Assembly: GCA_900552555.1 (NCBI GenBank)
Contig: URZW01000003.1
Span: 40,680 to 104,679, forward strand
Source: an uncultured Clostridium sp.
GTDB taxonomy: Bacteria; Bacillota; Clostridia; TANB77; CAG-508
Length of the DNA: 64,000 nucleotides
Reading direction: 5' to 3'
Positions 13,038 through 32,871 of the stretch are shown in pieces. Within the stretch, counting starts at the first letter, position 1. Every line of letters starts with the position of its first letter. The position numbers and the translations under genes are program-made. A model generated the notes under the pieces. It ran no database searches and had not been told where the DNA came from. It saw nothing but the letters and a program-made list of their open reading frames with translations.

Positions 13038-13438
13038 GAAAAATAGCAAACAGGGACATTCAAAAATTGGTTGAAAATTCAAGAATATTTAATCAATTTA
13101 AATAATTTTCTGTAAGTTAAAAAAGAGCCGGAAATTTAGGTAAGTAGCTTGTATAATGTACTGGGCAAGCTTAGCGAATGCTAGAAATAAAATCCAGAAT
13201 ATTATAGAGGTTACAATCTAAATGAGGCTCAAAAAAAGAGGGAATATGAGGATACCACAGCAAATCCCTCAAAAAATTTAATAAAAAAGGGAAGAATTGT
13301 GTACTGGACTCAAATTAATAATAAAAGTGAATTCATGTACTGATCCATAAATCCCTCAATTCCTAAAAGGAGGAAAAAACAATGTTTGAATTTATTAAAA
13401 AATGGTGCAAAAAAGAAGAAAAAGGAGAGAAAAATAGT

Positions 13439-15559
13439 ATGTTTAAAGTATACGAAACAGAATTAGCAGGAAGAAAACTAACAATAGAAACAGGAAAATT
13501 TGCAGGACTAGCAAATGGAAGTGTAACAGTAAGATATGGAGACACAGTTGTAATGGTAAACGTTACAGCATCAAAAGAACCAAGAGATGGAATAGACTTT
13601 TTCCCACTATCAGTAGATTATGAAGAAAAATTATATTCAGTTGGAAAAATACCAGGTTCATTCCAAAAAAGAGAAGGAAAACCAAGTGACAAAGCAATAT
13701 TAACATCAAGAGCAATAGACAGACCACTAAGACCATTATTCCCAAAAGACTTCAGAAACGATGTAGTTGTTGTTGCAACAGTTCTTTCAGTAGAACAAGA
13801 CAACTCACCAGAAGTAGCAGCAATGATAGGTGCATCAGCAGCACTATCAATTTCAGATATCCCATTTGGTGGACCAACAGCAGCAGTAAATGTTGGATTA
13901 GTTGATGGTAAAATAGTTATAAACCCAACAGAAGAACAAAGAAAAGTATCTGACTTAACATTAACAGTAGCAGGAACTGAAGAAAAAATAGCTATGATAG
14001 AAGCAGGAGCAAACGAAGTTCCAGATGATGTTATGTTAGAAGCAATTAAAGAAGGTCATAAAGAAATCAAAAAGATTTGTAAATTCATTGAAAAAATGAA
14101 AGAAGAAATCGGAAAACCAAAATTTGAATACAAATCATTTGCAGTTGACCATGATGTATATGAATTTATAGAAGCAAACTTTGCAGAAGATGTAAAACAA
14201 GCACTTCAAGAAGCAGATAAAGAAACAAGAGACAACAATGTAGCAGCAGTATCTGACAAAATTGCAACAGCATATGCTGAAAAATTTGGAGAAGAAGCTG
14301 CAGAAGAACATAAAGCTGATATTGGAGAAGCAATTTACAAATTAGAGAAAAAGACAGTAAGAGATATGATATTCTATGAACATAAAAGAGTTGATGGTAG
14401 AGCAATAGACGAAATCAGACCATTATCATGTGAAATAGATTTATTACCTCGTGTACACGGAAGTGCATTATTTACAAGAGGTCAAACACAAGTACTTTCA
14501 GTTACAACATTAGGAATGATAAGCGAAGAACAAACATTAGACGGAATTGATACAGAAGAATCAAAAAGATATATGCATCAATACAACTTCCCAAGCTACA
14601 GCGTAGGTGAAGCAAGACCACCAAGAGGACCAGGAAGAAGAGAAATAGGACATGGAGCATTAGCAGAGAAAGCATTAGTTCCAGTACTACCTTCAAAAGA
14701 AGAATTCCCATATGCAATAAGAGTTGTATCAGAAGTATTATCATCAAATGGTTCAACATCACAAGCAAGTATATGTGGAAGCACATTATCATTAATGGCA
14801 GCAGGTGTACCAATTAAGAGACCAGTTGCAGGTATATCAACAGGACTTGTAACAAATCCTAATGACGAAAATGACTATGTAATGTTAACAGATATCCAAG
14901 GACTAGAAGACTTCTTCGGAGATATGGACTTCAAAGTTGGTGGAACAGAAAAAGGTATAACAGCAATCCAAGTTGACATCAAAGTTGACGGATTATCATA
15001 CAAAATTATTGAAGAAGCATTTGCTAGAACAAGAGCAGCTAGAAAACATATCTTAGAAGATGTAATGGCACCAGTAATTTCAGAGCCAAGAAAAGAAATA
15101 TCAAAATATGCACCAAGAATAGTATCAACAAAAATAAAAGTTGAAAAAATCAAAGATGTAATCGGAAAAGGTGGAGAAACTATAAACAAAATAATTGATG
15201 CAACAGGTGTTAAAATAGACATCGAAGAGGATGGACAAGTAATGATTTATTCAAATGATTCTGAAAAAGCTAACGAAGCATTAGATATGATAGAAGACAT
15301 TGTTAGAGATGTAGAAGTTGGTGGAATTTATCTTGGAACAGTTACAAGAATAATGAACTTTGGAGCATTTGTAGATCTAGGAGTAGCTGGAAAAGAAGGT
15401 TTATTACACATTTCTAAAATTTCTAAAGAGAGAATTAAGAAAGTTGAAGATGTTCTTCATGTTGGAGATAAAGTAACTGTAAAAGTTACAGATATAGACG
15501 ACCAAGGTAGAATTAATTTAACAGCAATTTTATCTGATGATAAAGAAGATAAAGAATAA
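13439..15559 (+). CDS. pnp: Polyribonucleotide nucleotidyltransferase (PNPase)
   Basis: N-terminus MFKVYETELAGRKLTIETGK, two RNase PH domains, KH and S1 domains (GTVTRIMNFGAFVDL). RBS AAGGAGAG. An alternative in-frame start at 13382 also has a strong SD. Confidence 0.9.
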   Translation: MFKVYETELAGRKLTIETGKFAGLANGSVTVRYGDTVVMVNVTASKEPRDGIDFFPLSVDYEEKLYSVGKIPGSFQKREGKPSDKAILTSRAIDRPLRPLFPKDFRNDVVVVATVLSVEQDNSPEVAAMIGASAALSISDIPFGGPTAAVNVGLVDGKIVINPTEEQRKVSDLTLTVAGTEEKIAMIEAGANEVPDDVMLEAIKEGHKEIKKICKFIEKMKEEIGKPKFEYKSFAVDHDVYEFIEANFAEDVKQALQEADKETRDNNVAAVSDKIATAYAEKFGEEAAEEHKADIGEAIYKLEKKTVRDMIFYEHKRVDGRAIDEIRPLSCEIDLLPRVHGSALFTRGQTQVLSVTTLGMISEEQTLDGIDTEESKRYMHQYNFPSYSVGEARPPRGPGRREIGHGALAEKALVPVLPSKEEFPYAIRVVSEVLSSNGSTSQASICGSTLSLMAAGVPIKRPVAGISTGLVTNPNDENDYVMLTDIQGLEDFFGDMDFKVGGTEKGITAIQVDIKVDGLSYKIIEEAFARTRAARKHILEDVMAPVISEPRKEISKYAPRIVSTKIKVEKIKDVIGKGGETINKIIDATGVKIDIEEDGQVMIYSNDSEKANEALDMIEDIVRDVEVGGIYLGTVTRIMNFGAFVDLGVAGKEGLLHISKISKERIKKVEDVLHVGDKVTVKVTDIDDQGRINLTAILSDDKEDKE

Positions 15560-15588
15560 GTTTTATAAATTATATTTGAATTTTTGAG

Positions 15589-15618
15589 GTGATATTGTTG
15601 ATTCAATATCACTTTTTC
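15589..15618 (+). terminator. Rho-independent terminator of pnp
   Basis: GTGATATTGttgattCAATATCAC followed by TTTTTC. Confidence 0.7.
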
Positions 15619-15637
15619 TATGTTATAGTTTAAAGTT

Positions 15638-16057
15638 GGATAGAAAGTAAAAAAATTTATATTCCTAAGTAGATATATTATTTATAAGTATGAAAATTTG
15701 ATTGAAGTGAAAAATAGAGAATCTTATATAAAAAAATGAGGAATGCTCACGGAAAAAATATATATGTATATGGTTTTAGAATTTTTTCGGTTTCAATACG
15801 CAACATAAGAATTTCTAAAATAAATTAATGGCACCTTTCCACTAAAGTGAACTCTTTCCATTAATTTATTTAAGAAATTCTAATATTGCTCCAATTACAT
15901 TCAAAAATTCTAAAACCATATACATATATATTTTTGGCCTGAGTTAGAGAGTCTAGTTTTTTTATATTAGATTTTCTTTTTGAACGTAATGAATAGTTCA
16001 TACTTATAAATAATATATCTACTTAGGAATATAGAGATTTTTACTTTCTAACCAATT
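15638..16057. repeat. 420-bp imperfect palindrome (long inverted repeat centred near 15845)
   Basis: Outer arms 15638-15693 and 15998-16057 are near-perfect reverse complements. Inner matching blocks are 15754-15787 with 15903-15935, and 15809-15832 with 15858-15881. Confidence 0.75.
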
Positions 16058-16223
16058 AGTAGTATTATCCTTAATGAACTGCAAATTTTCTATTGCTAAA
16101 ATCTTATAATTAATGTATAATATATTTGACAAAAAACAACAGAACAAAGGATAAAATATTAAAAGAATTTAGCTTTAAATTTTTTTTTAAAATTCTGTAC
16201 CTTGAAGAAAGGAAAAGCAATAT

Positions 16224-17598
16224 ATGAAAAAAATAGGAAATATCATATCATGGATAATAATTATTATTATATTAATATTAGCCTTGAATTTTTATAGCAA
16301 GAATAATTTTAATGAATATGTAAGAAGTGAAATGAACTTACACACATCAGAATTTAAAAGAGATAGCGAAGTAAAATATTCAAAAACAAATAGTTATAAA
16401 ATAACATCAAACAATGAAAATGATGCAACATTCTATAAAAAAGTAAAGGTACAAAAAAATATGCCATATAAAGTAACATGTATGGTAAAAACAGAAAATG
16501 TAAAACCAGAAGGAGACATATCAGGAGTAGGAGCACAAATATCAATAATAGGAACAACAGAAAAATCAGTGGCAATAACGGGAACACAAGATTGGCAAAA
16601 AATAGAAATGATATTTAATTCAAAAGATAGAGAAGAAGTGGACATAGGATTTAGACTAGGTGGATATTTAGGAAAATGCATAGGAACAGCATGGTTTAGT
16701 GATTTTACATTTGAAGAAGGAACAATAAGTCAAAATAATAATTGGAAATTTGCATGTTTCATTTTTGAAAATACAGATGTTGTTTTAAATGGAAAAGAGA
16801 TAAATATATCAATGTCAGAAACAGATATTAACGATATAAGAGACACAATAAAAAGATTTGGAGCAAATATAAAAGATTTATCGGGAAATAAAATGACAGC
16901 TGATTATGATACATATATAGTAAAAGACCCAATAACCAAGCTATCATATGATGAAGAATTTGGATATTATGTTGCAGCAGAAGATGTTGAAGATTCAATA
17001 AAAGATGTTGTAAAACAAAATGAGTATGATCATATTTTTGTAATTATCAGATTAGGAAATGAAGAATATAGAAATGATATTCAGGTGAATGATTGGATAG
17101 GTTTGCGGTTCTATGGATTATTATGGAATAGGATATTCTAATATTAGACTACCAAATTCATCAAAAAGTTATATATATAAATATGATTCAAGAGTAAATA
17201 CATTTCCGGAAGAAGTATTTTTACATGAATTTTTGCATTCTTTGGAAAGAACAGCAGAAGAATATGGATATACAATACCAGCACTACATGATAACGAAAA
17301 ATATGGATATAAAAATCAAAATATAATAGGACTTAAGAATTGGTATATAGATTATATGAACAAAACAATAAAAACATCAAATGGAAATATAGGGTTACCT
17401 GCAGAGGTGTATACATTAAAACCAGCTAAAAATTTGGATTTTAAATATTCATATAATATTGATGAATTTCATGAGCCACAAAATGCATTGGAACAAATAA
17501 AACAATTATTTAAAAATATAGTATATAATGTTAAAAACATAGGAAGTTTGTTTAAAGAAAATGTTAATCAGAATTTAGAAGTTAATACAGAAAATTAA
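16224..17598 (+). pseudogene. Secreted/TM-anchored protein with C-terminal HExxH motif, split by a +1 frame change near 17113-17141
   Basis: ORF 16224-17141 (N-terminal TM) and ORF 17113-17598 (FLHEFLHSLE zinc-peptidase-like motif) overlap in different frames. Both frames carry YG-rich sequence at the junction. Confidence 0.4.
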
Positions 17599-17667: not shown

Positions 17668-18707
17668 GTGAAAAAAATGAAAGTAACAGATTTTAATTAC
17701 AACTTACCAGAAGAATTAATAGCACAAGTACCACTAGAAAAAAGAGATGAATCAAGACTAATGGTTCTAAATAGAGAAAAACAAACAATAGAACACAAAG
17801 TATTTAAAGACATAATAGATTATTTAGAACCAGGTGATTGCTTAGTCAGAAATAATACAAAAGTTATACCAGCAAGAATTTATGGAAGAAAAGAAACAGG
17901 AGCACATGTAGAATTCTTATTATTAAATAACATAGAAGGAGATATTTGGGAAAGTATTGTAAGACCAGGAAATAAGCTTCATGTTGGAACCAAAGTAATA
18001 TTCGGAGATGGACTACTAGAAGCGGAAATATTAGATATAATGCCAGGTGGAACAAGAAAAGTGGAATTCCATTATAAAGGAATATTTAATGAAATATTAG
18101 ACCAAATAGGACTAATGCCATTACCACCATATATCCACGAAGAACTAAAAGACAATGACAGATATCAAACAGTATATGCAAAATATGAAGGCTCAGCAGC
18201 AGCACCAACAGCAGGATTGCACTTTACACCAGAATTATTAAAGAAGATAGAAGAAAAAGGTGTTAAAATCGCAAATGTAACATTACATGTTGGAATTGGA
18301 ACATTTAGACCAGTAAAAGAAGACGAAGTAGAAAAACACGAAATGCATTCCGAACATTTTTATATTAAGCAAGAAGATTGTGATAAAATAAATGAAACAA
18401 AAAAAGCTGGAAAAAGAGTAATATCAGTAGGAACAACATCATGCAGAGTGTTGGAAACAATTGCAGATGAAAATACTGGAATGGTACAACCAACAGAGGG
18501 AGATACTCAAATATTTATTTATCCAGGATATAAATTTAAATGTATAGATGGATTAATAACAAACTTCCATTTACCACAATCAACATTATTAATGCTAGTA
18601 TCAGCATTAGCTGGAAAAGATTATATAATGAAAGCATACAACGAAGCTGTAGAACAAAGATATCGTTTCTTTAGTTTTGGAGATGCGATGTTTATCGAAG
18701 GGATTTA

Positions 18708-18708
<1 letters not shown>
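17668..18708 (+). CDS. queA: S-adenosylmethionine:tRNA ribosyltransferase-isomerase
   Basis: N-terminus [17 protein letters not shown] and the motif [10 protein letters not shown]; 346 aa. Confidence 0.9.
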
Positions 18709-19983
<1,275 letters not shown>

Positions 19984-22875: not shown

Positions 22876-22906
22876 AACTGAGTGAGAGAGGCTCAGTTTT
22901 TTTATG
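22875..22906 (+). terminator. Rho-independent terminator of spoIIP
   Basis: AAACTGAGtgagagagCTCAGTTT followed by TTTTT. Confidence 0.7.
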
Positions 22907-22928
22907 TTATATATTTTTTTTAAAAGTG

Positions 22929-32811: not shown

Positions 32812-32871
32812 ATATTACGTAATACGTAATACGAATGCGACAAGGTACAAAAAAAGAAAGGAAGTGATTAG

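Follow-up and report, generated by a model that had tools for sequence, protein, structure and literature searches.

Bacterial MITEs that form a single hairpin include Correia/NEMIS in Neisseria, ERIC/IRU in enterobacteria, RUP in pneumococcus, and bcr1 in the Bacillus cereus group. Eukaryotic Foldback (FB) transposons consist almost entirely of inverted repeat, with arms that are built of tandem sub-repeats and evolve in concert, and PATEs derived from IS200/IS605 make no target duplication, adjoin a short specific motif, and carry a subterminal hairpin of their own at each end. Prokaryotic MITEs, generally shorter than 500 bp, have terminal inverted repeats, fold into stable stem-loops, insert into AT-rich intergenic targets, and, when young, are bordered by direct repeats (PMC10969869). 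Among them, QMITE2 of Coxiella folds as one long hairpin, and a known small repeat with terminator-like hairpins occurs beside gene ends (PMC10969869).

The locus described here lies in a stretch of 64,000 nt (the window) from an uncultured gut Clostridium, the genome of which has about 28% GC and a strong GC skew. Upstream are rpsO and pnp, and downstream are two unknown genes, queA, and tgt. An earlier note, made by eye, had claimed a 420-bp imperfect palindrome immediately after pnp, with near-perfect outer arms and matching inner blocks, and this structure is real: the arms align on computation, and a global alignment of the two halves makes the palindrome slightly larger than claimed, 464 bp from tip to tip (15622–16085), with a 13–16-nt indel near the ends. 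A repeat search of the region 3' of pnp, the kind of self-comparison that the note had proposed, returns three nested inverted arm pairs (Table 1) and no direct repeats. The overall identity of the arms is only ~78%. The outer 59 nt (15636–15694 vs 15997–16055) hold about four mismatches, as read from the arm alignment, both quoted 33-nt blocks are exact on each arm (0 chance matches expected) and absent elsewhere in the window, and the third quoted block is off by one base, as the note had it. Both strands are predicted to fold into a single long hairpin, with energies of −175 and −163 kcal/mol where shuffled sequences average −72 and −65 (z about −20 on either strand). The 464 bp are AT-rich, neighboring window bins having 25–31% GC, and the longest ORFs inside reach 43 aa or less; look-ups of the window's own small ORFs find none on record as a called gene. 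The best explanation, to which we assign a probability of roughly 0.8, is that this segment is a recently inserted non-autonomous DNA transposon, a foldback-type MITE, belonging to a family without a match in the libraries and literature searched.

Table 1. Features of the pnp locus and related repeats, numbered from the first base of the window
Feature	Position	Strand	Basis or remark
pnp (polynucleotide phosphorylase)	13382–15559	+	ORF list; Pfam RNase_PH/PNPase/KH/S1 recorded for identical product
pnp intrinsic terminator, stem-loop GAGGTGATATTG..CAATATCAC plus T-run	15586–15619	+	Terminator scan; same in filled and empty strains
Left target-site duplication copy TTTTCTAT	15614–15621		Empty-site comparison
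Probable inserted element, AT-rich ORF-less imperfect palindrome (foldback-type MITE)	15622–16085		Absent from sister strains and outgroups; homologues elsewhere
Left terminal inverted-repeat tip GTTATAGTTTAAAG	15622–15635	+	Degenerate form of consensus GTTACAGTTCAGTAAG
Outer arm pair	15636–15734/15957–16055		99 nt, 79%
Left outer arm	15636–15694		Pairs with 15997–16055; holds exact 37-nt block TATATTCCTAAGTAGATATATTATTTATAAGTATGAA
Left arm module A (..AAAAAAATGAGGAATGCTCACGG)	15695–15753		~86% conserved among copies (alignment, regional identities)
Middle arm pair	15746–15786/15903–15943		41 nt, 93%
Block 2, left arm	15754–15786		Exact reverse complement of 15903–15935; partner-concerted change in other copies
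Left spacer a, internal loop	15787–15808		Unpaired with right spacer b'; L062 has a' on the right instead
Inner arm pair	15800–15831/15858–15889		32 nt, 91%
Block 3, left arm	15809–15832		Pairs with 15858–15881; most conserved part of the family (90–95%)
Asymmetric apex	15833–15857		Conserved CAC/GTG mini-stem; variable loop (TAAA, TT, TCTC)
Block 3, right arm	15858–15881		Repeat search, family alignment
Right spacer b'	15882–15902		Family alignment
Block 2, right arm	15903–15935		Exact partner of 15754–15786
Right arm module B'	15936–15996		Degenerate in window; A' replaces B' in L061, L063
Right outer arm	15997–16055		Repeat search, arm alignment
Right terminal inverted-repeat tip (reverse complement TTTGCAGTTCATTAAG)	16070–16085	−	TTACAGTTCAGTAA with 2 mismatches; adjoins right target duplication
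Right target-site duplication copy TTTTCTAT	16086–16093		Last T is first base of −35 hexamer
Downstream-gene promoter TTGCTA-17-TATAAT	16093–16121	+	Promoter scan, 10/12 match
Downstream gene, 305 aa	16224–17141	+	Same product in strains with and without the element
Separate 170-bp palindromic MITE-like element, terminal motif ACAGTTCAGTAA	25507–25680		Same terminal motif as 464-bp element
Solo terminal motif (CTACTGAACTGTAAC)	27431–27446	−	Same tip motif

The pnp site is polymorphic for the element, being filled in one clonal lineage and empty in other strains and in related species. Same-species contigs were gathered from public assemblies by exact matches to PNPase and to the 305-aa downstream protein. 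Empty strains, which have an identical PNPase, read terminator-TTTTCTAT|TGCTAAAAT, and the window reads TTTTCTAT-(464 bp)-TTTTCTAT-TGCTAAAAT, so that the insert is bordered by an 8-bp target-site duplication that is perfect when checked against the empty sites; in the eight assemblies used for this comparison, the BLAST segments overlap by exactly 8 nt. The empty reading ...CAATATCACTTTTTCTAT|TGCTAAAATCTTATAAT is found in about ten same-species assemblies, the spacers of which measure 263–264 nt, or 394 nt in one of them (L002). On flanks ...CACTTTTTCTAT|TGCTAAAATC, the window lineage differs by the 464 bp and a second TTTTCTAT, giving ...CACTTTTTCTAT(GTTATAGTTTAAAG...GAACTGCAAA)TTTTCTAT TGCTAAAATC in the window and its clonal group (about 8 samples, with 0–2 differences per 2.6 kb from the window). 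The element lies precisely between the terminator of pnp and the −35 box of the following gene, and the T-run of the terminator forms part of the duplicated target. Through the duplication, the T-run is restored on the left and the −35 box regains its first T on the right, so that the terminator and promoter motifs both stay intact.

Several other features of this neighborhood were recorded. In L002, of the same species, positions 6220–6360 hold a distinct 131-bp hairpin-forming insertion upstream of the pnp terminator, with ends TTGATAATATATTGTTTT / AAAACGATATATTATCAA; small insertions have a hot spot in the pnp 3' spacer. Directly after the pnp stop, at 15560–15580, the window haplotype bears a second indel or replacement: 21 nt (GTTTTATAAATTATATTTGAA) stand there in place of about 90 unrelated nt in other strains. 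A related species (L040, 3792–3849) has an insert of ~110 nt in the pnp 3' spacer relative to its sister L041, with a weak resemblance to module A' of the palindrome family (58 nt at 74%, E = 0.001, below the nhmmer threshold); it may be a decayed partial family copy in the same intergenic region. Farther downstream, the 305-aa and 161-aa genes (16224–17141 and 17113–17598) overlap by 29 nt in every strain and could be two genes or one frameshifted gene; the only domain match of the pair is a weak CBM_6. The queA–tgt spacer is filled by a 144-bp imperfect palindrome (18700–18843; 57-nt arms, 86%) in all strains examined.

Relatives of the element were sought through the spurious ORFs that gene callers place across its arms. 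A profile of two translated arm sequences yielded two peptides, an exhaustive search with one of these yielded three more, and a profile of four led to 19 ORF clusters, all from ENA metagenomes. Homologous copies are present in the contigs of these clusters (L059–L073; nhmmer E-values 1e-46 to 1e-114), in roughly ten distinct, unrelated intergenic contexts from gut metagenomes. These include the 3' side of a P-type ATPase terminator in a ~90%-identical relative (L060), the region upstream of and inside the start of a murE-like gene (L059), the spacer between transketolase and M20 peptidase (L064), and sites after a glucosamine-6-P isomerase gene (L065) and beside SLT/polA (L063); two further copies adjoin insertion sequences of the IS30 (L061) and IS3 (L072) families. 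Full copies elsewhere measure about 465–483 bp, and several copies of the family sit just after gene terminators. The ORFs across them lie in differing frames and strands and are broken by indels, leaving no conserved ORF. Four central-deletion variants and three arm-truncated variants (L059b, L073, and P0013) are also present, as is expected for unstable palindromes. The idea in the earlier note that the palindrome is a fossil of an inverted duplication is not supported, given these homologues at unrelated loci and the absence of the segment from sister strains and from the related species examined.

The family is spread through uncultured, low-GC gut Clostridia and is apparently not yet described. 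Exact arm-block scans of genome, metagenome, and viral contig collections gave no match; scans with a gapped palindromic-tip pattern and with 16–18-mer tips gave chance matches only, the 19 loci that they pointed to having neither partner ends nor further similarity. BLAST of the element, of the L065 copy, and of the small MITE at 25.5 kb against phage and plasmid collections found no match, and a search of the literature for the tip sequence and for Clostridium MITEs turned up nothing relevant. The element is present once in the 64-kb window, with no copy in about 270 kb from 33 related species, and the copy number per genome may be low, unlike that of classic MITEs.

Some copies are associated with other sequences. 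An IS30-family transposase gene (NF033563, 101.6 bits) abuts the palindromic copy in L061 (3272–4588), and an IS3-family element splits the copy in L072 (1194–2548) at module B'; family palindromes may attract other insertion sequences. In P0013, an ENA contig of only 707 nt, an ORF consists of an N-terminus with YADFE and, fused to it, an arm of the element that is cut short at block 2. We take this N-terminus to be reminiscent of protein-primed family B DNA polymerases, but it has no Pfam match, and a link between such polymerases and the family was dropped.

The copies have terminal inverted repeats in common. Both ends of the L065 copy carry the consensus tip GTTACAGTTCAGTAAG perfectly, and recognizable variants end the L061 copy and six others. 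In the window, the tips begin exactly at the boundaries set by the empty-site comparison, and an 11-nt tip, GTTATAGTTTA, is identical between the left end of the element and an end of L061; the window tips are degenerate, about 10 of 14 positions agreeing between the two ends. L064 is bordered by a 10-nt direct repeat, a length reached in 11 of 5000 shuffles, and in the flanks of L065, 6 of 8 target-duplication positions match; clean target duplications are seen in two copies only, those of the window and L064. The same tip motif recurs in the window on a separate 170-bp element and as a solo end (Table 1), which suggests one transposase serving several non-autonomous families; judged by its termini, the 170-bp element is probably served by the transposase of the 464-bp element. 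Searches of the window, of about 90 fetched loci, and of phage, plasmid, and viral-contig collections turned up neither a transposase nor an autonomous element the ends of which match. IS30- and IS3-family elements make target duplications of 2–4 bp, and the genes of these families beside two of the copies have ends unlike those of the palindromes, making them unlikely partners. The IS30-family gene beside L061 was rejected as the mobilizing enzyme because it adjoins only one copy and its duplication size is wrong.

Elsewhere in the window, two paralogous genes (25746–26303 and 26337–26870, minus strand) without a Pfam match lie between the 170-bp element and the solo end. A MITE-like palindromic repeat of 136 bp with 33–41-nt arms (TGTCCATTTGGGGACGGTTCT...) is present twice, at 4923–5058 and 6648–6783, the second copy overlapping the annotated start of an RNase J-like ORF. 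A tRNA-Thr (30110–30185) is followed by a tyrosine-integrase gene (30274–31467, minus strand) and an inverted-repeat pair (31566–31613/32802–32849), with the local GC skew reversed; the region from 30110 to 32849 looks like an integrated element.

Given these observations, a course of events can be proposed. On the evidence of the empty sites, the element entered the AT-rich TTTTCTAT, where the U-tract of the pnp terminator abuts the −35 box, and duplicated 8 bp. A putative DDE-type transposase encoded elsewhere in the genome would bind the tips and make staggered cuts of 8–10 bp in trans. The insertion would have been close to neutral, since both the terminator and the promoter motifs remain intact. 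The earlier note had offered the composite ends of a lost mobile element as one possibility; mobility is upheld, but the whole palindrome, with its terminal inverted repeats and 8-bp duplication, is itself best read as a small non-autonomous transposon and not as the ends of something larger. Against the MITE reading stand the failure to find a matching transposase, the single copy in the 64-kb window, the degenerate window tips, the small number of clean target duplications, and a pattern of conservation that is inverted relative to textbook MITEs.

This last point is best seen in the conservation profile of the family. The inner ~310 bp are 70–95% identical between copies, whereas the outer ~70–90 bp on each side, apart from the tips of ~15 nt, are only about 40% identical. 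The outer arms are largely unalignable between copies (about 40–55% pairwise identity); within one copy, they are nevertheless 70–95% complementary. Changes tend to occur on both arms together. Between the window and L060, 15773G>A is accompanied by 15916C>T, 15779G>T by 15910C>A, and 15693A>T by 15998T>A, and the homology of the two copies ends at the mirror-image positions 15671/15672 and 16019/16020. Block 2 differs heavily among sub-families, with the same changes on both arms. Such mirror-symmetric, concerted evolution of the arms is one unusual feature of the family. In the proposed mechanism, gene conversion from arm to arm, or the correction of mismatches in a hairpin or cruciform intermediate, could preserve complementarity within each copy as the copies drift apart; alternatively, transposition could select for the formation of a hairpin.

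The same data bear on a refinement of the MITE reading that we consider improbable, though it fares best among the alternatives. According to it, the conserved core of ~310 bp is the mobile or functional unit and the outer arms are repeatedly rebuilt by copying one from the other, by fold-back synthesis or conversion in a hairpin intermediate; the family would then move or renew itself by a hairpin-based mechanism and not by simple cut-and-paste. Outer arms that are about 55% identical between copies but complementary within each of them, homology breaks at mirror-symmetric positions, and mirrored changes in block 2 are what such copying would leave, and the three arm-truncated copies that end at block 2 suggest a shorter unit. 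However, ordinary gene conversion between close inverted repeats yields the same pattern, and the truncated copies may be deletions or chimeric short contigs. Moreover, the asymmetries between the arms (spacers a/b' and modules A/B') are kept in most copies, a symmetric version being found in L062, L061, and L063, and such persistent internal loops mean that homogenization is incomplete. A slightly broader proposition, that the arms are regenerated via a single-stranded hairpin intermediate or that the core is a selected DNA or RNA hairpin with a cellular role, is a little less improbable but still unlikely; regeneration of this kind would explain the mirror breakpoints, the copy-specific yet matching outer arms, and the conserved asymmetric core.

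Selection on pairing is also the essence of a second alternative, in which mobile DNA happens to carry a structured RNA with a function, be it one long hairpin, a pair of sRNAs, or a terminator or insulator module that moves. RNAalifold gives a structure of 105 pairs for six full-length copies, with 93% of cells paired. In 18 pairs both sides have changed, whereas column shuffles yield 6.7 ± 1.9 such pairs (0/500 reaching 18) and slid controls 1–4. At the apex, the mini-stem is kept but the loop varies, and one sub-family has an additional GC-rich hairpin there. Terminator-like modules face outward on both arms, module B' of copy L059a reading CTGAGTGAGAGAGGCTCAG and then a T-run, and a promoter scan finds a putative sigma-70-like TTGAAT-16-TAGAAT on the minus strand (15904–15877). 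Strong as this covariation is, some copies (L062, L061, and L063) have other sequence in place of the promoter-like spacer or the terminator-like module, and presence or absence of the element among near-identical strains is accompanied by no linked change in the neighboring genes. Rfam 15 gives no match at the gathering score and none that is real at E up to 10, with chance-level hairpins at E ≥ 0.14. Mismatches of the wobble type show no strand bias (5 vs 4, 5 vs 5, and 17 vs 10, the last in the predicted plus-strand structure), and with G·T and A·C mismatches equally frequent, there is no sign that one RNA strand is under selection. It is simpler to suppose that the DNA arms evolve in concert, by conversion or via a hairpin intermediate, and a functional RNA is distinctly improbable. 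The narrower idea in the earlier note, an attenuator or long non-coding RNA in front of the gene at 16224, is not supported, nor is a leader of that gene: in addition to the Rfam and mismatch results, its conserved promoter comes only after the element, the gene is present in strains and species that lack the element, and the promoter motif TTGCTAAA...TATAAT stands without it at seven loci of related species. A type I toxin–antitoxin or small-peptide gene was likewise rejected, as no ORF is conserved and an apex indel shifts the frame.

A further hairpin with a T-run, which reads as an intrinsic terminator, follows the spoIIP-like gene at 22878–22912 (ACTGAGTGAGAGAGGCTCAGTTTTTTTATGTTA). By reading, about 30 of 33 nt match the B' module of L059a, and this segment is either a captured terminator or a copy remnant.

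A third alternative reverses the direction of the event: the palindrome would be ancestral at the pnp site and lost elsewhere by slipped-strand deletion between the 8-bp repeats. Long palindromes with short direct repeats on either side are well known to be prone to deletion, and strain distances alone do not settle gain versus loss, since filled and empty strains differ at 25–36 positions per 2.6 kb and empty strains differ from one another at up to 29. What decides the matter is the outgroups, 33 loci of related uncultured gut Clostridia found via the 305-aa protein, down to about 75% protein identity. In related species with pnp adjacent, the T-rich tract after the terminator abuts TTGCTAAA..N..TATAAT, contiguously in L021 (TTTTCTATTGCTAAAATC) and L028 (TTTTTCTATTGCTAAAAT) and in looser forms in about seven others. 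None of the 19 related-species pnp spacers inspected holds the element, and nhmmer found no copies in about 270 kb from the 33 related species. Because these relatives keep the T-tract contiguous with the promoter and lack the element, the empty state is ancestral and the insertion derived. Loss would also require a base-exact deletion in every lineage and would leave unexplained the homologues with the same tips at unrelated loci; an ancestral palindrome is accordingly very unlikely. The insertion of the transposon is best read as recent and as having taken place in a single strain lineage of this gut Clostridium.

An assembly artefact, whether a collapsed inverted repeat, as the earlier note had feared, or a chimeric one, is scarcely credible: five short-read assemblies do break within the palindrome, as is expected at such a repeat, but the 664-nt spacer from pnp to the next gene is complete in four independent assemblies (100% identical in three from ENA, one mismatch in the fourth), which excludes it, both junctions run into normal flanks, and arms that are only about 78% identical are unlike any hairpin artefact. 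Also rejected were an IS200/IS605-type element, on account of the target duplication, and an integron attC, a telomere-resolution site, or a single-strand origin, all of the wrong size or context.

With the transposon reading, an odd 420-bp palindrome becomes a defined, datable insertion event, and the MITE family to which it belongs can be defined by its sub-families, its conserved core, its target duplication, and its tips. As a kind of element it is fairly ordinary, and the practical value of the definition is modest: it may serve MAG annotation, strain typing, the explanation of contig breaks in short-read assemblies, and the search for the transposase. Less ordinary are arms that co-vary as strongly as those of a structured RNA, outer arms that are replaced symmetrically, and a center that is better conserved than the ends. 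To our knowledge, hairpin-based regeneration of the arms as a means of transposon maintenance or movement has not been described for bacterial MITEs. If a hairpin intermediate, and not plain conversion, were responsible, this would be relevant to the question of how bacteria retain palindromic mobile DNA when long palindromes are known to be unstable.

Compared with the known systems, the element is closest to the hairpin MITEs. It is small (464 bp), AT-rich, intergenic, and devoid of a transposase or any other conserved coding capacity, it has family-wide terminal inverted repeats, a target duplication, a site polymorphism, and a stable stem-loop, and its copies lie at unrelated loci. It differs from them in standing at the large end of the size range and in having the inner core, not the termini, as its best conserved part; against the named hairpin MITEs, it is further set apart by an apparently low copy number and by the absence of a sequence match in phage, plasmid, and Rfam libraries. 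It resembles the small repeat with terminator-like hairpins in its module B' and in the position of several family copies just after gene terminators, but the scan finds only the terminator of pnp in this region and the sequences are unrelated. PATEs are likewise non-autonomous with prominent hairpins, whereas the two ends here are inverted repeats of each other and an 8-bp duplication is made. REP/BIME, which are high-copy, GC-rich stem-loops of 20–40 bp, are unlike a 464-bp, AT-rich element with a single copy in the window. Finally, the element shares with FB an almost wholly inverted-repeat structure and arms that evolve in concert, although FB belongs to another domain of life, shows no homology, and carries tandem sub-repeats that the window element lacks.
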